DNA of 64,000 nt from Microcoleus sp. (GTDB lineage: Bacteria; Cyanobacteriota; Cyanobacteriia; Cyanobacteriales; Microcoleaceae): contig JAYFMW010000006.1 in NCBI GenBank assembly GCA_042408215.1, positions 1,018,659 to 1,082,658 of the forward strand, written 5' to 3'. How positions within the stretch are numbered: the first letter of the stretch is position 1; every line of letters begins with the position of its first letter. Positions 12,517 through 46,391 of the stretch are shown here, in pieces. Both the position numbers and the translations under genes were made by a program. Below the pieces are notes generated by a model. The model worked only from the letters and a program-made list of their open reading frames with translations, ran no database searches and was not told where the DNA came from.

Positions 12517-12815
12517 GTCAATCACCCACCGCTAATCGGAGTACCGATATAGCGGGGGCAAGAAATTCGCCTAGTTGACCAGTCTAAGTAAGAGAACACT
12601 TCGACACTTCGACTACGCGAGCGTGCGACGCTTCGCTCAGTGGAGCCACTTTTACTACGTTTAGGGCAAGAGTTAAAGACCTACCAGTGGATGCGAAGCT
12701 AGTCCACTGCTCTAGAACTCAGAAGTTAAACAGGCTTAAGGGTTAAACCAGTGCTTTTGAGATAGTTACCGACCTTAAACATTGACGAAGCTAACATTAC
12801 CCCGCAAGGGAGGAC
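12517..12815 (+). ncRNA. IscB omegaRNA (HEARO-like) scaffold
   Basis: Closely similar to the reverse complement of 46144-46391 (GTTGACCAGTCTAAG, ACTACGTT, CATTGACGAAGC, TTACCCCGCAAGGGAG). Confidence 0.8.
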
Positions 12816-36250: not shown

Positions 36251-36296
36251 TTTGTTGTTCCGCATTAATTCCGCATACAATAACAGTAAGGCAGAA

Positions 36297-37433
36297 ATGA
36301 GGCAAAAGCAAATGTTACTTAGTTTCAAGACGGAATTAAAACCTAACAACAAACAGGTGACAATATTTCGACAGCATTGCCCAGTAGCAAGACACGCTTA
36401 CAACTGGGCAAATTCAATCATCCTTGAAACATTAAAAATCAGGGAGACGGATAAAAGTGTAAAGCTCCCTTCTGCCATTGATCTACACAAACGTTTAGTA
36501 GCGGAAGTCAAGCCTCTGTATCCCTGGTATTATGAGTCTTCCAAAGCAAGCCCACAGCAGGCTCTAATTGAATTGAGGATAGCTTGGGATAGATGCTTCA
36601 AAAAGGTATCTAAACAACCTAGGTTCAAGAAAAAAGGTGTGTCAGGTGATTCTTTTTATCTAGAGCAAGGAACCAAAGCAAAGCCAGGAATTAATAACGA
36701 CGGCAAGCGCATCAAGTTACCTAAGATTGGTTGGGTTAGGTTGCACGAACCATTGCCCATTACGGCGTTCCACAACTGCGTAATCAGTCGAAAAGCTGAC
36801 AGATGGTTCATTGCTTTTAAGTGCGAAATTGAGCAGCCCGCAACTCTACCTAGCCGTCCTACCGTCGGAGTTGATATCGGCATCAAGCAGCTAGCTGTTT
36901 GTTCTAACGGCGAAGTCTTTGCCAACCCTAAAGCCGAGCGTCGGATGAACCGTAAAATGAAACATCTGCAACGACGTGTTAGCAAACGAGTCAAAGGTTC
37001 TAATAACCGCAAAAAAGCAGTCTCAAAGCTAGCCAAGCTGCACCTAAAAGTATCAAATATCCGAAAAGATGCTATTCATAAGCTAACAACTTACCTCGCC
37101 AAAAACCACAGTGAGGTGAAGATTGAAGATTTGAATGTTAAGGCATTTTTGAAGAACCACAAGTTAGCTGGTGCAATCGCCGACTGCGGAATTTACGAAT
37201 TCAAGCGTCAACTTGAATATAAAACCAAAAAGTTTAACTCAAAATTGACGCTCATAGATCGATTCTTTCCTAGCAGTCAAATCTGTTCAAATTGCTGCAA
37301 TCATCGGCATAAAATGCCATTAAGAGTCCGAGCCTTTGAATGTCCCAGTTGTGGAAATATTCAAGACCGTGACTTGAATGCGTCGAAAAATATAGAACGT
37401 TGGTTTGAAGGAATATTTATTCCAGAGTCCTGA
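36297..37433 (+). CDS. tnpB: TnpB RNA-guided endonuclease
   Basis: GVDIG, IEDLNV, zinc finger CSNC…CPSC, DRDLNASKNI. Confidence 0.9.
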   Translation: MRQKQMLLSFKTELKPNNKQVTIFRQHCPVARHAYNWANSIILETLKIRETDKSVKLPSAIDLHKRLVAEVKPLYPWYYESSKASPQQALIELRIAWDRCFKKVSKQPRFKKKGVSGDSFYLEQGTKAKPGINNDGKRIKLPKIGWVRLHEPLPITAFHNCVISRKADRWFIAFKCEIEQPATLPSRPTVGVDIGIKQLAVCSNGEVFANPKAERRMNRKMKHLQRRVSKRVKGSNNRKKAVSKLAKLHLKVSNIRKDAIHKLTTYLAKNHSEVKIEDLNVKAFLKNHKLAGAIADCGIYEFKRQLEYKTKKFNSKLTLIDRFFPSSQICSNCCNHRHKMPLRVRAFECPSCGNIQDRDLNASKNIERWFEGIFIPES

Positions 37434-38045: not shown

Positions 38046-39170
38046 ATGAAAACACTGAAGTTTAAGTTGTACGAACACAAGCGGAATAAACACCTCAAGC
38101 GGATGATTAACGCCGCAGCGGTGATTTATAACCATTGTATTGCTCTACATAAACGGTACTACCGAATGTGGGGCAAGCACTTGAGTTGTGCAAAAATTCA
38201 GTCTCATATTGCCAAGTTGAGAAAACGTAATCCATTTTGGCAATCGGTCGGTTCTCAGGCAGTACAGGACATCTGTCAACGCATTGAGAAAGCCTATAAA
38301 CTGTTCTTTAAGCACCAGAATAAAAAAGTTAGACCGCCCAACTTTAAGAAAGTTAGACGATACAAATCGTTCACTTTAAAACAAGCTGGCTACAAATTAT
38401 TAGGTGGCAACCGGATCGAGATTGGAAATCGTGTCTATCAGTATTGGAACACTAGAGCCATTGAGGGAACGGTCAAGACCTTGACTATTAAGCGCACGAC
38501 CTTAGGAGAGTTGTTTATGGTCATCGTTGTAGACAGCGTTAATGAACCTAAAACCAAATTCGAGACGAGTAGAATCGCTGGATTTGATTTTGGTTTGAAA
38601 ACGTTTCTCACCTGTTCAGATGGTTCCAAGATTAAATCACCGCAATTTCTGAAACAATCGCTCAATGCCATCAAGAAGGCGAGTCGCAATCATTCCAAGA
38701 AACGGAAAGGTTCCTCCAATCGTGAACGAGCTAGAAAAAACTTAGTTCGTAAACATGAAGATATTTGTAACCGCAGACGTGATTGGTTCTGGAAATTAGC
38801 TCAACAATTGACAGACAAGTTTGATGTTTTATTTTTTGAAACCCTAAATCTTAAGGGAATGCAACGTCTTTGGGGTAGAAAAATATCAGACTTGGCTTTT
38901 GGTGAATTTCTGCAAATCCTCGAATGGGTAGCAACGAAGAAAGGGAAGCAGGTTGTTTTCATCGACAGATGGTATCCATCCTCTAAGACTTGTTCGCACT
39001 GTGGGCAAGTCTTAAAAGAATTAGCGATAGATGTGCGTGAATGGCGTTGTCCGTCCTGTCAGTCAGTGAACGGCAGAGACGAAAACGCTGCTATAAATAT
39101 TCAAATGGTTGGGGCATCAACCATTGGGTTAGGTGATGTTAGACGGGCTACGCCCGCAGTTACTGTTTGA
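38046..39170 (+). CDS. tnpB: TnpB RNA-guided endonuclease
   Basis: GFDFG, FETLNL, CSHC…CPSC, GRDENAAINI. Confidence 0.9.
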   Translation: MKTLKFKLYEHKRNKHLKRMINAAAVIYNHCIALHKRYYRMWGKHLSCAKIQSHIAKLRKRNPFWQSVGSQAVQDICQRIEKAYKLFFKHQNKKVRPPNFKKVRRYKSFTLKQAGYKLLGGNRIEIGNRVYQYWNTRAIEGTVKTLTIKRTTLGELFMVIVVDSVNEPKTKFETSRIAGFDFGLKTFLTCSDGSKIKSPQFLKQSLNAIKKASRNHSKKRKGSSNRERARKNLVRKHEDICNRRRDWFWKLAQQLTDKFDVLFFETLNLKGMQRLWGRKISDLAFGEFLQILEWVATKKGKQVVFIDRWYPSSKTCSHCGQVLKELAIDVREWRCPSCQSVNGRDENAAINIQMVGASTIGLGDVRRATPAVTV

Positions 39171-40228: not shown

Positions 40229-40315
40229 GGAGAGGTGGCAGAGTGGTCGAATGCGCTCGGCTTGAAACCGAGTGTGGCAGTGATGTCACCGTGGGTTCAA
40301 ATCCCACCCTCTCCG
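40229..40315 (+). tRNA. tRNA-Ser(TGA)
   Basis: GGAGAGG/CCTCTCC acceptor stem, CTCGG-CTTGAAA-CCGAG anticodon arm, long variable arm, GGTTCAAATCC T-arm, G73. Confidence 0.95.
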
Positions 40316-40423: not shown

Positions 40424-41836
40424 TCAAATAACTCCAATTGCTGGAACTATCTTAGGGTTCCCAGGCTCACCCACCAACGCGGATGATTTTCCCTGTCTTC
40501 CAACAGGCTCCTCGGGCGTAGTTTTATCCTGTTTCCGAGGGACTCTCGGTACAGCATCCAAATAGATTCCCAGTCGATTCAGGCCACGCTGCAAAATAAC
40601 TTTTGCAGCATCCACATCGGCATCCTCATGATGGCCGCACTCTTCGCAGATAAATTTCTCTTGATCTCGATTTGTGGGACTGATATACCCGCACTCGCTG
40701 CATTCCTGAGAGCTAAAGTGAGGCATCGCTTCATAAACCAGAACGCCCGCCCTGTCGGACAAAATCTTGACTTTCTGTTTTAAGGAACCCCAAGCAGCAT
40801 CAGTAATGGCTTTGTTCAGTCCAGATTTAGCAGACTGACCGTTAGGCAGATACTTTCCGTTTTCATCCTGCTTTGGTTTGCAGCGTGCCATCATGCCTTG
40901 AATATTCAGATTCTCGAACACAATCAGATCGAATTGCTTCACCAAGTTATTAGCTATCTTCCATTGGTAATCCTCTCGTCGATTGGCAACTTTTTGTTCC
41001 AGTCTGGCTAAGCGCTGACAGGCTTTTCTGCGACGGCGGGAACCTAAAACCTTGCGGCTGACAGCACGGTTTAGTTGCGATCGCTTCCGCTCCATCTGTT
41101 GATAAAATCTGGGATTGGCAATGGTTTGTCCCGTACTGAGAGACATTAGCTTCTTGATACCCAGATCTACTCCTACTGCTGTTTTAACTTGATTTGCTGC
41201 TGGAATATCTGGAACAGACTCATCTTGCAACAAAACAGAAATATAAAAGCCATCTGCTTTTTTCCGAACAGTGACGGAACGAATGCTGAAAGCATTGGGA
41301 AACAGTCGGGACTGAAAAAACGACATCCAGCCAATACCGGGAAGTCGAACTTTATTCCCTTTAAAGGCGACATCTCCAGGCGGGTAGGTGAAAGAGCGAA
41401 ATTTACCCTGCCGCTTTGTTTTCGGATATTTGCCCAATCCTCGGAAAAAGCGCCCAAAAGCAGCATCAACCTGTTTCAGCATTTGTTGCAAAACATGGTG
41501 ATAGATTTCTCTATACCAAGGACGCTCCTGCTTCAGGTCAACCAGATTGGCATCTTGTTGAGCCAGCGGAGTCCTTTTCTTGCCTTTTGCTGTCCAAGGA
41601 TAGCCGTACAAAGCACCTTTGCTTAACGAGCAAGCGAAAGGGCAACACTCGGCTTGAGTTTCGATGAAGCAGTAGTTCCCCATAACAGGAAATCTTGCTT
41701 GCTCGTAGGCTTCTGTCCGCTCTCTGACTCTGAAATTGTACTGCAAGCGGAGCAAATGAATCCACCGCTCGATTGTTTGAGCTTGTTTGGGCGATGGATT
41801 CAGCTTGTAAACATAAGCAAGCAGCATGACTCTCAA
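40424..41836 (-). CDS. tnpB: TnpB-family nuclease, 9 bp downstream of the KilA-N gene
   Basis: GVDLG, FENLNI, CSEC…CEEC, DADVDAAKVI. Confidence 0.88.
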   Translation of the reverse strand: MRVMLLAYVYKLNPSPKQAQTIERWIHLLRLQYNFRVRERTEAYEQARFPVMGNYCFIETQAECCPFACSLSKGALYGYPWTAKGKKRTPLAQQDANLVDLKQERPWYREIYHHVLQQMLKQVDAAFGRFFRGLGKYPKTKRQGKFRSFTYPPGDVAFKGNKVRLPGIGWMSFFQSRLFPNAFSIRSVTVRKKADGFYISVLLQDESVPDIPAANQVKTAVGVDLGIKKLMSLSTGQTIANPRFYQQMERKRSQLNRAVSRKVLGSRRRRKACQRLARLEQKVANRREDYQWKIANNLVKQFDLIVFENLNIQGMMARCKPKQDENGKYLPNGQSAKSGLNKAITDAAWGSLKQKVKILSDRAGVLVYEAMPHFSSQECSECGYISPTNRDQEKFICEECGHHEDADVDAAKVILQRGLNRLGIYLDAVPRVPRKQDKTTPEEPVGRQGKSSALVGEPGNPKIVPAIGVI

Positions 41837-41845
41837 TTAACTAGG

Positions 41846-42727
41846 CTACTGATTCAGCAGATTAGCAACTTGCTGCGCTGTGGAATGGGAGATGCTAGCG
41901 CATGAGCTCACCCCATTAGGATTAAGCGTGTTGATCCGCTTGGCACTGAGAACTTTGGCAAAATCTGTAGCAGCCAGTTCCTCCATTGTCATGGCATCTT
42001 TGCAGTTTTGTCCTTTTTTCAATCCTCTTGCTGTTCGGAAATCTTCGGTACGGCCAATGATCGGCTGATACACCCTCGCCTTGCACTGAGCAAAGTGCAG
42101 TGGAACCTGAACCCCATGTTCATACAAAGCTGCCTCGTAGAAGTCTTCTTTGGGAATAGAGTCAAGACGGGCTCCAATATATTCACGGCTTTTGCCTTGC
42201 TTTTCCCAATTTTTAACTGCCCTTTGCCGACTACGGCGAACGCCGAGTTCTGGATCTACTTCTTCTTCAATCCTTTCTTTGACAGCATTTCGCGCCCAAT
42301 CACGAAACTCTGTAGACAAGGATTCGGCATATTCGATGGCTATCTTGTCTATGGCATAAGTTCCACCGCCTATACCTCCGCGAGTTGATATCAGACCAAC
42401 ATCTTTAGCTAATTTTCTGACTTGGTTTGCCCAAGCTCTGTATTTTTTACATGCAGAGTTAGCGACTGGTTGTTCTACAAAAGTTCTCTCGACAACGGGT
42501 TTTAACTCAAGCTTAGCTTCAAGGACTAATTCCAACAGCCGTTCACAGATACGCTTCTGTATCAACCACTTATCTAGCTCTTGGGATTTAACAGACCCGG
42601 CAGCTTTCCACATATCGGTCAGGCAGATTAGCCCACCGTTTTGCTGACAATGAATCACTAAACCTTTGTAATTCATGTTCTTACTCCGTAATTTCCCCAT
42701 CGCCAAAAAACCTCCACTAAAATCCAA
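41846..42727 (-). CDS. KilA-N domain protein (antirepressor-like)
   Basis: ICLTDMWKAAG and GGGTYAIDKIAIEYAESLS motifs; start uncertain (42727, 42700 or 42676). Confidence 0.75.
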   Translation of the reverse strand: MDFSGGFLAMGKLRSKNMNYKGLVIHCQQNGGLICLTDMWKAAGSVKSQELDKWLIQKRICERLLELVLEAKLELKPVVERTFVEQPVANSACKKYRAWANQVRKLAKDVGLISTRGGIGGGTYAIDKIAIEYAESLSTEFRDWARNAVKERIEEEVDPELGVRRSRQRAVKNWEKQGKSREYIGARLDSIPKEDFYEAALYEHGVQVPLHFAQCKARVYQPIIGRTEDFRTARGLKKGQNCKDAMTMEELAATDFAKVLSAKRINTLNPNGVSSCASISHSTAQQVANLLNQ

Positions 42728-42880
42728 AACAGTCTTGACATATTTGTGACCGTGTGGTAGTAGCTAAGGGTTGACAAATGTGCTATGATAAAAGCACAAG
42801 AAACTCTAGACCGCAAGAAATTAAATTCTTGCAGCTCAGGTGTATAGCCCAAAGCGACTACCGAGCAAGATCCTTATCTG

Positions 42881-42967
42881 TGGGGATGGTGGGACTCGAA
42901 CCCACAAAAACCCTGGCAGGTTATCCGGTTAGGAGCCGGATGCGTTTTCCAGTTCCGCCACATCCCC
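42881..42967 (-). tRNA. Atypical class II tRNA with CCT (Arg) anticodon
   Basis: GGGGATG/CATCCCC acceptor stem; D arm GCG-GAACTGGAAAA-CGC; TCCGG-CTCCTAA-CCGGA anticodon arm; 18-nt variable region; GTGGG-TTCGAGT-CCCAC T-arm; A73. Confidence 0.85.
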
Positions 42968-43085
42968 AAGTAGAATGCAGCGGCGATACTTTGAATTAGG
43001 AACTCAAAGCATCGTCGCTGTTTGTTAACGGAGAAAATATCATTTGCGGTGTCATCATCGTGTTGCTCGCATTATTTGACTCTGA

Positions 43086-43682
43086 TTATTCGTTGCACAA
43101 ATTTGAAGCATAAAGATTTCGACCAAGCTTTTTCCACCTTTTATGTGTCTCTGCGCCCCGACGCAATTCTACGCTCAAGGAGTTTTTGGCTCGCCAAAAT
43201 TCCTCTTCAGATTCCGCGTCAAATATAGCTTCGACAATCCGATCGGCTAGCATTGGCTCTTGATGAGCATTCAAAACCTTTTCTATGGATTCTGCAAAGG
43301 TCAGCCCCAGGTACTGAGGACGCTTTATCTCCACAGGGTTACGCTGATGTCTGTTTTGAGAGATTGCTTTTTCAAGACCTGCATCTTCAAAAGCAAAACT
43401 AACATTGGCTAGGCCTCCTTTTAGATGTTCCTCTGCACCAAGAGAACTTGTCGAAGCTACTTGACTCTCATTCAAAGTCAGTGTTTCTGTTTCGGAAACC
43501 ACATCTGTAGGTTTTGATGCCACTTCATCAGGAGCTACCTGCGCCAGCGTACTCTCGTAATAAAGAATACTTTCTTTTAGTTGTACAGCTTTCGCTTGTA
43601 CTTCAGCAAGTTCTGACTTCTGCTGGTCAATTTGCTCTGTGAGCCATTTGACGAGCTGTTCGCGGGCAAGATCCTGTGCCAT
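43086..43682 (-). CDS. Coiled-coil + putative winged-helix protein
   Basis: N-terminal heptad pattern; C-terminal AESIEKVL…MLADRIVEAIF…SLSVELRRG…WKKLGRNLY. Confidence 0.65.
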   Translation of the reverse strand: MAQDLAREQLVKWLTEQIDQQKSELAEVQAKAVQLKESILYYESTLAQVAPDEVASKPTDVVSETETLTLNESQVASTSSLGAEEHLKGGLANVSFAFEDAGLEKAISQNRHQRNPVEIKRPQYLGLTFAESIEKVLNAHQEPMLADRIVEAIFDAESEEEFWRAKNSLSVELRRGAETHKRWKKLGRNLYASNLCNE

Positions 43683-43869
43683 AGCTCCTAAAATTTTCTG
43701 TGCTTCTCAGAAGATCACACAACAAAACAAATTTAGGAACAAAAAAAAGAAAAGAATGTAAAAAATTCTCGGTTCTTAAATCACATTACATACCGCTGCG
43801 AGTTCCCACCAAAAAAAACACCCCGCAGAGGTGCTTTTGCCTACCAAATAATCTGTCAGGTCAACTGAC

Positions 43870-44301: not shown

Positions 44302-44802
44302 TTACAGTGCCGGAACAGGAGTTGTAGCTTCCGGCAAGCTAGTGAGGTCTTTACCTGTAGTTTGGTTGTTGTACCCCTGGAATTCGCGGTAACGCGATGC
44401 TTCCGACTCCGGCACTTTAATGCCTTCTGGTGGCGGCGTTACCCAGTGAGCTCGTTTCTGGGCGTCGCGGTAGTAAACGCGGCCGTTTTTGGAAAGGTAA
44501 TATTGCCCCTGCGGCCCCTGTTCTTGTTTATTTTTGTGCTGATTGTAGAGGTAGTAAAGGGCGGCTGCTCCTACTAAAGTAATCGCTACTTTTTGAGTAT
44601 TGCTCAGTCCTTGTTTCGCTTGGGGCGAAGGACTGGAGGTACGATTTGCGGGCGCTCCAGCGCGAGTATCATCTACTGGGGGCGGGGGAGCAGAATTTTG
44701 CTGGCTGGAACCGCAAGCAGTGACAAAGGGAAATGTGAGCAGCGTTGTCAGCAGCAGTGCCATGAAGCGCGAGCTTCTTGGTTCCGGGTAAACTTGATTC
44801 AT
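44302..44802 (-). CDS. Putative lipoprotein
   Basis: Lipobox FVTAC, internal hydrophobic helix, YYLSKNGRVYYRD. Confidence 0.75.
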   Translation of the reverse strand: MNQVYPEPRSSRFMALLLTTLLTFPFVTACGSSQQNSAPPPPVDDTRAGAPANRTSSPSPQAKQGLSNTQKVAITLVGAAALYYLYNQHKNKQEQGPQGQYYLSKNGRVYYRDAQKRAHWVTPPPEGIKVPESEASRYREFQGYNNQTTGKDLTSLPEATTPVPAL

Positions 44803-46391
44803 CTGTCTTCCCCCTTGGAGACTCCCACTGTACCTGTACCCTGGTCAGTGGCGAGAGGAAAAGGGAGGCAAGGTTTATGCTGCATACGAATAACCATCCT
44901 TTCGGTGAACAACTGAACAATATTTGTGACTAATTCCCGATACCAATTCGGATGCGGAAATATTAAATGAACCACTCGTTCTTACGGCAACAGATCCAAC
45001 GTATTTACCAATTTTCTTGCCGGAGGTTACAATCGCTTTAACGATATCTCCCGTTTGAAAACCTTTGACAAACTTAAACCTAGGGACATAGCAAGATGGA
45101 AATCCAAACTTATCGGTACGACACATTTGACCTGTCCCATGCCCAGTCGCTTTAATTAACAATGGCTTGTTTGTTAATATTTCCAACGAATCAACGTTCC
45201 CAACACAAGCTGCATCTAACCAGTGAGTTTTAGCTAAATTCAATCGAGTGCGGTTGAACTTTGTTAGGCCACCACTGCCAGTAGAAACTGGTAAGCCAGT
45301 CATAGGGAGTCGGTTAAATAATGCCCAACGAGTCGAATTAACGGCTGTCGCGTCTTTGAGAGGACGATGAGCTTGAGATAGAATCCGCTTCAAAATCTCT
45401 GGCTTTTTAGAGAGGAATTGCTCAATACCTTGAGTTCCTTTCTTTTTATTACATCTTTCGCAAGCAAGGCAAAGATTAGAAATGCGATTAGAACCACCCT
45501 TAGCTTTAGGATGAATATGTTCGACTTGTAATGGTGTATTTGTAACACCACAATACGCGCACTTTCTATCCCACTTATTGAGCAAGTATTCCCGAACCTC
45601 GTAGCCACATAAAACACCTTGCTGATATTCGATTCCAGAAATCTCTGGATTTTCTAATTGTTGTAAGTCAAACCGTACAAGTTCTTGAATAATCGAGGCA
45701 ATAGGGGCGAGCTTCATCAATCTAGTTACCCAGGTTAGGGTTGTTTCGACACGATGTTGCAAGCTGGGAGCCAGCCACCCTTTAGGGCGAGTCCTATTTA
45801 GGAACCTCGCTTGACGATAGCGAGTATGACGATTTCTCCTACCTCTACGCAATGAACGGCGAGACTCCAAACTGGCTTTGATTGTTTGACCGGGCGTGAG
45901 TTAGTTCTGCACCAAAGATTACGTCCTCTCCTTGCACTAATGCGATTCCTGTAGTCTTAGAACCCGGATCTATTTTAAGAGTGATTGGTTTTTGGGTTGC
46001 TGTCACCTCTACTTTGAGAATTAGTGTGAATGGATACCTTTTGAAAACAGCAGCTTTGCCATTGTTTAGCAATTTACGAGCCAATCCCGGATTGGATTGA
46101 GCGGTTGTTTTCTGGTATCAAGTACAAAAACAAAATTAGACATTTCAGCCCTCCCTTGCGGGGTAATGTTTGCTTCGTCAATGTTTAAGGTCGGTAACTA
46201 TATTAAAAGCACTGGCTTAACCCTTACACCTGTTTAACTTTTAATTTCTAGAGCAGAAAACTAGCACGCATTTTCTGGTAGGTACTTTAACGCTTACCTT
46301 AAACGTAGTGGGCGAACCACTTAGACTGGTCAACTTGGCGAATTTCTTGCCTGCACCGTATCGGTAATCCGATCGGTGCCGGGTTGTTGAC
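44803..46391 (-). mobile_element. Non-autonomous IscB element #3 with omegaRNA (46144-46391)
   Basis: Minus strand starts GTCAACAACCC; scaffold is homologous to element #1; ends directly before ATGA of the lipoprotein gene. Confidence 0.8.
44875..46143 (-). pseudogene. iscB: IscB with two N-terminal frameshifts
   Basis: Frameshifts near 46090 and 45893; HNH and RuvC motifs otherwise intact. Confidence 0.85.

Follow-up and report, generated by a model that had tools for sequence, protein, structure and literature searches.

Which amino acid is delivered by a tRNA that has the body of a leucine tRNA and the anticodon of an arginine tRNA, and what does the corresponding codon mean in its host? 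The question is raised by a gene in a 64,000-nt stretch of DNA from the filamentous cyanobacterium Microcoleus sp. (contig JAYFMW010000006.1 of assembly GCA_042408215.1, in the following called the window), which encodes a class II tRNA whose body is of leucine type and whose anticodon is CCU, matching the arginine codon AGG. In bacteria, long variable arms are by textbook account limited to the tRNAs for leucine, serine, tyrosine and selenocysteine. Our analysis points to an accessory tRNA that is conserved and probably functional, combines two identities, and exists in addition to a hidden canonical decoder of AGG. Genomes are labeled G and loci L; the window's own genome is G000 (7.36 Mb in 30 contigs, with the window tRNA on contig C6).

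A leucine-type body with anticodon CCU

ARAGORN predicted a minus-strand tRNA-Arg(cct) at 42880-42967, one of two tRNA genes in the window, and the Rfam tRNA model RF00005 matched the same strand at 42881-42967 with 61.2 bits (gathering score 29, E 8.5e-11, model positions 1-71). The tRNA is 87 nt long. In the ARAGORN cloverleaf, the acceptor stem GGGGAUG/CAUCCCC (7/7), the D stem GCG/CGC (3/3), the anticodon stem UCCGG/CCGGA (5/5) and the stem of the T arm GUGGG-UUCGAGU-CCCAC (5/5) are fully paired. The D loop reads AACUGGAAAA, the anticodon loop CUCCUAA, and the variable region of 18 nt contains a 5-bp stem AACCU/GGGUU with one U-G pair. The anticodon lies at 42931-42933, A20 at 42948 and the discriminator base A73 at 42881. 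U8, A14, G18G19, U33, A37, U48, G53, UUC and C61 are all in place, and the gene does not have the marks of a pseudogene. CCA is not encoded at the 3′ end, where the adjoining bases are CAG. The first-pass annotation, made from the letters alone, had described a fully paired 87-nt cloverleaf with a long variable arm, A73, the anticodon CCU and an A20 alongside the leucine features; this description, including A20, was confirmed, and the strand was added.

A strict search pattern combining a leucine-type D arm, a YCU anticodon loop (CCU or UCU), class II spacing and a T loop had a single match in the window, and 100 shuffles gave none. The minimum free energy (MFE) fold of the single sequence did not give the cloverleaf (z = -2.57), as is common for tRNAs folded in this way.

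The body is that of a leucine tRNA. ARAGORN listed 50 tRNAs in G000, including all five leucine isoacceptors (UAA, UAG, GAG, CAA, CAG), and the motif UGGCGGAAyUGG....CGC is common to these five and the window tRNA. Of all tRNAs in the genome, the window tRNA comes closest by global alignment to Leu(UAA), Leu(CAA) and Leu(GAG), with the arginine tRNAs scoring lower, which bears out the earlier suggestion of a leucine-derived tRNA. By these comparisons, the ancestor of the window tRNA was a leucine tRNA, and its anticodon changed to CCU. Two other ARAGORN calls with poor stems, an 84-nt 'tRNA-Gly(ccc)' (G000:C3:343815-343898) and a 95-nt 'tRNA-Gln(ttg)' (G000:C8:176767-176861), are likely false positives because they are absent from the 48 Rfam tRNA matches of this genome.

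The long variable arm and the 3-bp D stem agree with the class II architecture of tRNA-Leu, and the AAYUGG....CGC-type D loop, A15/U48 and A73 are likewise found in bacterial leucine tRNAs. The window tRNA departs from them in its anticodon, CCU rather than the NAG or YAA of leucine tRNAs, and in carrying A20 and A21 where the leucine tRNAs of G000 have U or C at position 20, followed by mostly G. Conversely, it lacks the class I body with short variable loop, 4-bp D stem and GGAUAGAG-type D loop that characterizes the four canonical arginine tRNAs of G000 (UCU, ACG and CCG, together with the spliced CCU gene described below).

The identity elements of both amino acids meet in this molecule. 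The bacterial arginine set given in Table 1 of Giege and Eriani (2023) consists of A20, C35, U or G36 and A or G73, with A20 the strongest in E. coli; the leucine set in the same review comprises A73, A20a, tertiary interactions (A15:U48, G18G19) and the large variable region, and contains nothing from the anticodon. The window tRNA has the full leucine set (A73, A15/U48, G18G19, A20a, large variable region) and the full arginine set (A20, C35, U36, A73). In a pattern search for A20 within a leucine-type D arm, 5 of 401 genomes of the phylum matched: one match is a true Leu(UAA), one is the window tRNA, and the other three look doubtful. Judged from this search, A20 is very rare in leucine-type D loops.

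To what extent the gene is conserved was addressed at several taxonomic distances. Full-length, near-identical copies occur in two of the 36 congeners searched, G010 (98%) and G005 (95%). A scan for the architecture with CCU or UCU in one genome per species (185,579 species) yielded 17 loci, 15 of them ARAGORN tRNAs, and six of these 15 belong to the family of the window tRNA (four Microcoleus, [Phormidium] sp. LEGE 05292, and a metagenome-assembled genome (MAG) labeled Obscuribacterales). A search of the order with the KilA-N domain protein encoded next to the tRNA matched 6 of 301 genomes and added tRNA copies in G124 and G331 as well as a badly decayed one in G305; five further members came from metagenome contigs. 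In the resulting alignment of 12 distinct sequences, pairing holds in 97% of cloverleaf cells, and in 10 of 25 pairs both bases have changed, values reached by 0 of 500 shuffles, while slid controls pair to 36-59%. The loop CUCCUAA and A73 are invariant in all 12; A20 is found in ten, and the other two (L051 and L123) have all stems paired and carry U20.

The tRNA is also better conserved than its surroundings. Between G000 and Phormidium it is 82% identical, compared with 51% for the KilA-N protein and 25% for the protein of the other flanking gene, orf198, and the downstream spacer is no more similar than shuffled sequence (114 identical positions against a shuffled mean of 111.5). Other copies have decayed, by G53A in G005, by U55G and a U6-U67 mismatch in G124, and by loss of D-stem and T-arm pairing in G305. 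Three genomes lack the locus through deletion: G008 is missing window 41981-43503, and in G021 and G065 the gap has other ends, at about 42016-43795. On this comparative evidence, the gene is a real, selectively maintained accessory gene that some lineages have retained and others have lost. The earlier view that its intact pairing argued against simple decay, and the check for covariation among homologs proposed with it, are both answered by the compensatory changes in 10 of 25 pairs across the 12 members and by the anticodon kept in relatives.

AGG as an arginine codon and its canonical decoder

The meaning of AGG was examined by translating open reading frames (ORFs) from G072, a congener that lacks the tRNA, and from G044, a genome of the same order, using 200 kb of each. 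The translations were searched against G000 by tblastn and the aligned residue of the relative was tallied for each G000 codon. AGG codons stood opposite arginine in 105 of 139 cases (76%) against G072 and in 67 of 137 (49%) against G044, closely resembling AGA with 191 of 245 (78%) and 153 of 277 (55%), respectively. Leucine opposite AGG was outside the five commonest residues in the comparison with G072 and made up 5 of 137 in that with G044. AGG is used 4.06 times per 1000 codons in G000, or in 8.0% of arginine codons (2371 long ORFs), and 4.21 times per 1000 codons, or in 7.6% of arginine codons, in G072. The neighboring KilA-N gene itself contains three AGG codons, two of which encode R152 and R169, invariant in all five homologs. 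As judged from these alignments and counts, AGG means arginine in G000 and is neither reassigned nor avoided. A change of AGG from arginine to leucine, for which the existence of the leucine-bodied CCU tRNA is the sole argument, is virtually excluded because AGG aligns to arginine as often as AGA does throughout the genome, with leucine rare, and stands at the invariant arginines of the KilA-N gene; the presence of a canonical tRNA-Arg(CCU) argues against it as well.

This canonical gene is hidden from standard annotation. The canonical arginine tRNAs listed by ARAGORN in G000 are only UCU, ACG and CCG, and the first-pass annotation had proposed to look for a separate tRNA-Arg(CCU). Such a gene is present, masked by a group I intron of the self-splicing type, 243 nt long. 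We searched with a pattern joining the common arginine D loop to a CCU loop, GGATAGAG-N7-YTCCTR, and found one or two matches to this canonical D loop and CCU 5′ exon in each of the 61 genomes of the genus, G000 included. At the G000 site on contig C1, where ARAGORN found nothing under four settings, lies a full-length group I intron (Rfam 57.5 bits, E 9e-14); joining the exons in silico gave a 74-nt gene that ARAGORN calls tRNA-Arg(cct). The gene was missed by ARAGORN and by the Rfam tRNA model because the intron splits the anticodon loop. Group I introns are mentioned for bacterial tRNA-Arg(CCU) genes and for cyanobacterial tRNA-Arg genes in PMC5733544.

G000 thus holds the same anticodon on two bodies of different identity, the leucine-bodied CCU tRNA on C6 and the class I arginine CCU tRNA on C1. 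They share the loop CUCCUAA, A20, C35, U36 and the codon AGG. The canonical tRNA is of class I with 74 nt, a short variable loop, a 4-bp D stem, G73 and an intron, whereas the window tRNA is of class II with 87 nt, A73 and no intron. With the canonical gene present, the leucine-bodied tRNA is an additional AGG reader and not a replacement, which rules it out as the sole decoder of AGG. Automatic annotation would label it as the organism's only tRNA-Arg(CCU), because the intron hides the genus-wide canonical gene from ARAGORN and the Rfam tRNA model.

We also considered whether carriage of the leucine-bodied tRNA is tied to hosts with the intron. The intron is present in the canonical CCU gene of G331 (a carrier with all stems paired), G305 (decayed copy) and two non-carriers, G612 and G212, and absent from that of G124 (decayed copy). 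There is no usable correlation, since the non-carriers G612 and G212 also bear the intron while G124 lacks it. A possibly similar arrangement was seen in G661 (Blastocatellia), where at L396:1500-1660 an arginine-type 5′ half ending in CUUC is followed by sequence resembling the G000 tRNA-Arg(CCU) intron. It has no Rfam match at gathering score and may be an intron-split tRNA-Arg(UCU).

Genomic setting, RNA libraries and related tRNAs

The tRNA gene forms the middle part of a three-part cassette, orf198, tRNA and KilA-N gene in this order on a single strand, which is patchily distributed among related cyanobacteria (Table 1). The order is kept in Phormidium (L051). In the MAG labeled Obscuribacterales, a gene with 31% identity to orf198 (L046) lies next to the tRNA and the contig stops before the KilA-N side. 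KilA-N homologs stand beside the tRNA in L051, L150 and L152.

The orf198 protein has a coiled-coil N-terminus and possibly a HARE-HTH-like winged helix, suggested by a weak hit (E 0.094; Atlas lead 0.91); no Pfam, PHROG, NCBIfam or PADLOC family matched it at a meaningful score. The KilA-N protein resembles two PADLOC defence candidates, PDC-S13 (8e-18) and PDC-S22 (3.8e-10), matches PHROG 129, a phage transcriptional regulator, and has 254 relatives in viral contigs. Among the best 11 of these 254 viral loci there was one tRNA (Met) and no class II tRNA beside the KilA-N gene, and a direct phage origin was rejected on this basis. Searches with Pfam, PHROG, PADLOC and NCBIfam revealed no nuclease, synthetase or RNA-modifying domain in the cassette. 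The TnpB gene is a neighbor outside the conserved cassette, since by tblastn it lies beside the Microcoleus copies but not in Phormidium.

Table 1 Features of the locus, of the canonical tRNA-Arg(CCU) gene and of a related tRNA family
Feature	Position	Strand	Evidence
Class II tRNA, leucine-type body, anticodon CCU	42881..42967	-	ARAGORN, Rfam RF00005, family covariation
Ends of RNA-library contigs from two studies, 13-17 nt upstream of the tRNA 5′ end	42980..42984	-	
orf198, first gene of the cassette, directly upstream of the tRNA	43086..43682	-	homologs next to the tRNA in relatives
KilA-N domain protein, 293 aa, third cassette part, directly downstream of the tRNA	41846..42727	-	Pfam KilA-N E 4.4e-7
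TnpB (IS605 OrfB), 9 nt downstream of the KilA-N gene	40424..41836	-	Pfam OrfB_IS605, Cas12f1-like_TNB
Ordinary tRNA-Ser(UGA), 2.6 kb from the leucine-bodied tRNA	40229..40315	+	ARAGORN, Rfam; equal spacing in L040
HEARO / IscB-like / TnpB elements	12517-12800, 46163-46391, 44875-45870, 36252-37433, 38046-39170, 40424-41836	+, -, -, +, +, - (in this order)	
Canonical tRNA-Arg(CCU), intron-split after U36	G000:C1:101573-101889 (locus L086 274-590)		pattern, Rfam intron, in silico splicing
Canonical CCU gene, 5′ exon, ...CUCCU	C1:101573-101609		
Canonical CCU gene, group I intron, 243 nt, last base G	C1:101610-101852		
Canonical CCU gene, 3′ exon, AAGCGCU...CAGUCCCG	C1:101853-101889		
Soil family of leucine-bodied UCU tRNAs	L095, L101, L104, L109, L119, L126, L129, L134, L140, L142, L145, L148		metagenome

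The wider region is chromosomal (PsaL, NadA), yet rich in insertion sequences (IS): it contains three TnpB genes as well as an IscB-like gene accompanied by its HEARO RNA. These elements, of IS200/IS605 type, lie densely within 35 kb and comprise two HEARO RNAs, one of them just upstream of the IscB-like RRXRR+HNH gene, and the three TnpB (IS605 OrfB) genes. A stretch of about 100 bp at window 44799-44900 recurs with 76-98% identity at many places in G000 and in other genomes of the genus and is probably a mobile-element end or a miniature inverted-repeat transposable element (MITE). Integration at the nearby tRNA-Ser was considered and dropped, as no integrase domain was found among the 28 ORFs scanned, in a search that did not extend to attachment-site (att) repeats.

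Six sequencing runs recorded as RNA hold part of the window, and four of them, from four studies, were examined. Assembled contigs cover the tRNA in all four, spanning 42820-43158, 42814-42984, 42679-42980 and the whole of 42600-43300; the last is a 92%-alike variant from a biocrust metatranscriptome. Some RNA runs are without cover over parts of the window. The contig ends at 42980..42984 give a weak hint of a transcript start; the contig of a third study runs across this site. A scan of 42600-43400 detected no consensus promoter and no terminator.

In the wider collections, the architecture pattern matched 58 metagenome loci and 4 viral loci besides the 15 species genomes. Parsing left 58 unique leucine-bodied YCU tRNAs (27 CCU and 31 UCU), with A73 in 56 and U48 in all 58. 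A20 occurs in eight of the 27 CCU sequences, namely six of the window tRNA's family plus L114 and L135. Canonical-type matches in D loop and anticodon, with the same anticodon, were detected in four of five other genomes tested, three of the four confirmed with a T-loop pattern; the leucine-bodied tRNAs of those genomes are therefore also extras. In G657, the MAG that holds L042, the sole UCU tRNA found is the leucine-bodied class II one, and two patterns, BLAST and the Rfam list gave no class I UCU tRNA. The tRNA list of this MAG, with 30 entries and without any Gly, Pro, Phe, Tyr, Trp or Cys tRNA, is incomplete, and absence of a class I UCU tRNA can therefore not be claimed. AGA in G657 stands opposite R most often (12/53), not L.

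A control pattern allowing any of 48 anticodons without A35 matched the G000 tRNA alone among 401 genomes of the class, and at least 120 loci in viral contigs (L155-L274). Among the matches listed are 86 unique well-paired viral sequences, whose anticodons include GCU (18), GUU (18), UGG (8), UUA (7), CUA (5) and GUG (5). Phages combine the leucine-type chassis with a wide range of anticodons, and YCU does not stand out among these listed matches.

Further observations concern individual long-armed or adjoining tRNAs. Among the matches listed, the long-armed viral tRNAs with a leucine-like D arm and non-leucine anticodons include GUU with G73, GUG with C73, UUG with G73, UGG, GCC and UCC with A73, and readers of stop codons (UUA, CUA) with A73. 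In an Omnitrophota MAG, a 75-nt arginine-type tRNA with a GGAUAGAGC D loop (L039:2612-2686) adjoins a leucine-bodied CCU tRNA; its anticodon according to ARAGORN is GCU (serine AGY), and position 33 is C. A recurrent family of leucine-bodied UCU tRNAs from soil (Table 1) has the acceptor 5′ strand CGGGGCG (C1-G72) and A73, and its members differ in variable-arm sequence.

Charging of the tRNA and its possible role

Which synthetase wins the tRNA, and what benefit keeps the gene, we infer from the features described above. Our tentative preference is for charging mainly with arginine, which would make the tRNA an extra, intron-free, long-armed reader of AGG. In this case arginyl-tRNA synthetase (ArgRS) would capture the leucine-bodied tRNA through A20, C35 and U36, and the tRNA would serve mainly as a second tRNA-Arg for AGG, of class II and without intron, with some charging by the anticodon-blind leucyl-tRNA synthetase (LeuRS) likely alongside. 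Arginine is favored by A20, found in 10 of 12 family members though rare in leucine-type D loops, and by AGG, which encodes invariant arginines in the linked KilA-N gene and is not depleted in the genome. In addition, a foreign tRNA given an arginine anticodon was taken over by ArgRS in Mycoplasma (PMC4652775, PMC6267555). A number of points weigh against this preference. All known bacterial leucine determinants are retained, A73 in 12 of 12 members, and leucylation is to be expected because LeuRS does not use the anticodon. A redundant second tRNA-Arg(CCU) gives selection nothing obvious to keep, which leaves its advantage unclear, and the gene is dispensable, since copies have decayed in G005, G124 and G305 and been deleted in G008, G021 and G065. 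The fully paired members L051 and L123 have U20 instead of A20, and A20 is absent from 19 of the 27 unique leucine-bodied CCU sequences and nearly all UCU sequences; work in E. coli, as covered in PMC4652775 and PMC6267555, implies that it takes more than a CCU anticodon for ArgRS to accept a foreign tRNA as a good substrate. The RNA-library contigs show the presence of the sequence in these libraries, not its transcription, processing, level or strand, and DNA carry-over is possible.

The retained leucine set (A73 in 12/12, U48, G18G19, A20a, long arm), which recurs as A73 in 56 and U48 in all of the 58 unique leucine-bodied YCU tRNAs, is at the same time an argument for charging by LeuRS. 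The tRNA would then compete with tRNA-Arg(CCU) and tRNA-Arg(UCU), and a fraction of AGG codons would be read as leucine, or charging would be a real mixture, amounting to ambiguous decoding or tolerated mistranslation that is possibly conditional or useful to the cassette. Such a non-redundant role would explain the retention of a gene that duplicates an existing decoder, and there is precedent in anticodon variants of leucine tRNAs that mistranslate in yeast and mammalian cells (PMC11028032) and in the coexistence of same-anticodon tRNAs of different identity in Ascoidea/Saccharomycopsis yeasts (Shulgina and Eddy 2021). We consider it a strong rival, somewhat less likely than charging mainly with arginine. 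Against it count that the cassette's own gene uses AGG at invariant arginine positions, that AGG is not depleted genome-wide, and that A20, the strongest bacterial arginine determinant, looks ancestral in the family although it is very rare in leucine-type D loops. A bolder version appears rather unlikely: the leucylated tRNA would be a working part of the orf198/KilA-N (PDC-S13-like) cassette that purposely reads AGG as leucine, be it for regulated statistical mistranslation or to serve as a weapon between phage and host, and one visible member of an unrecognized, widely scattered class of leucine-bodied AGG/AGA readers in bacteria and phages.

Quite unlikely, in our estimation, is a tRNA-shaped RNA outside bulk translation and tied to the cassette, for instance a decoy or nuclease-resistant stand-in against an anticodon nuclease acting on tRNA-Arg, or a part in some other phage-host conflict. 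The linkage of orf198, tRNA and KilA-N across genera, the matches of KilA-N to defence candidates and its many viral relatives, the identity of the CUCCUAA loop with that of the spliced canonical tRNA-Arg(CCU), and the patchy distribution with repeated loss would fit such a role; the domain searches of the cassette, the best 11 viral KilA-N loci with no class II tRNA, and the preservation of translation-type features (T loop, G18G19, a 7-nt loop with U33, A37) do not. We regard it as improbable that the gene is a functionless relic, a duplicated leucine tRNA brought in by mobile DNA whose anticodon drifted and which is silent or weakly expressed and heading for decay. The IS-rich surroundings, the decayed and deleted copies in relatives, and the scan of 42600-43400, which returned neither consensus promoter nor terminator, are what such a relic would leave, but the compensatory changes, the invariant anticodon loop, conservation of the tRNA where the spacer is not conserved, the full pairing of the G000 copy and its coverage by RNA-library contigs from four studies speak against it.

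Nematode nev-tRNAs are long-armed, have glycine or isoleucine anticodons and are charged with leucine; they likewise combine a leucine-type body with a non-leucine anticodon, but belong to animals. In the literature searched, which did not include subscription journals and supplements, we found no published bacterial leucine-bodied CCU tRNA. The tRNA(CAG) pair of Ascoidea/Saccharomycopsis is similar in placing one anticodon on two identity bodies in one genome; that case is eukaryotic, concerns CUG and serine versus leucine, and has expression and charging shown in one species (Shulgina and Eddy 2021), whereas the window case is bacterial, concerns AGG and arginine versus leucine, and is known here from sequence alone. 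The same authors describe a tRNA(CCU) with methionine identity in uncultivated Bacilli, again a bacterial CCU tRNA with the body of another amino acid. There the tRNA is without A20, AGG occurs at methionine positions and the code has changed (Shulgina and Eddy 2021), whereas the window tRNA has A20 and AGG is arginine. Allo-tRNAs, described by Mukai et al. (2017) and reviewed in PMC7609411, likewise join a long-armed bacterial body to an anticodon that does not belong to it, but they have 8/4 or 9/3 acceptor/T geometry and are of serine type (PMC7609411), while the window tRNA is 7/5, with a 7-bp acceptor stem and a 5-bp T stem, and of leucine type. Finally, capture of tRNA-Pyl(CCG) by ArgRS in Mycoplasma capricolum (Krishnakumar et al. 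2013, per PMC4652775 and PMC6267555) likewise shows that a foreign body with an arginine anticodon can become an ArgRS substrate. That tRNA was engineered and has CCG rather than CCU, and a version with CCU could still be used for recoding in E. coli (PMC4652775, PMC6267555).

If the window tRNA is charged with arginine, it would be a class II tRNA-Arg, indicating that ArgRS can adopt a foreign scaffold via A20, C35 and U36; such a long-armed tRNA-Arg would be a new, as yet undescribed kind. Charging with leucine would mean that selection in a free-living cyanobacterium maintains a tRNA that rivals the cognate arginine tRNA at AGG codons; this would parallel the CUG ambiguity of yeasts in a bacterium and might be a first step of a sense-codon change. 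Either way, this tRNA offers a compact natural test case for two synthetases competing over one tRNA.

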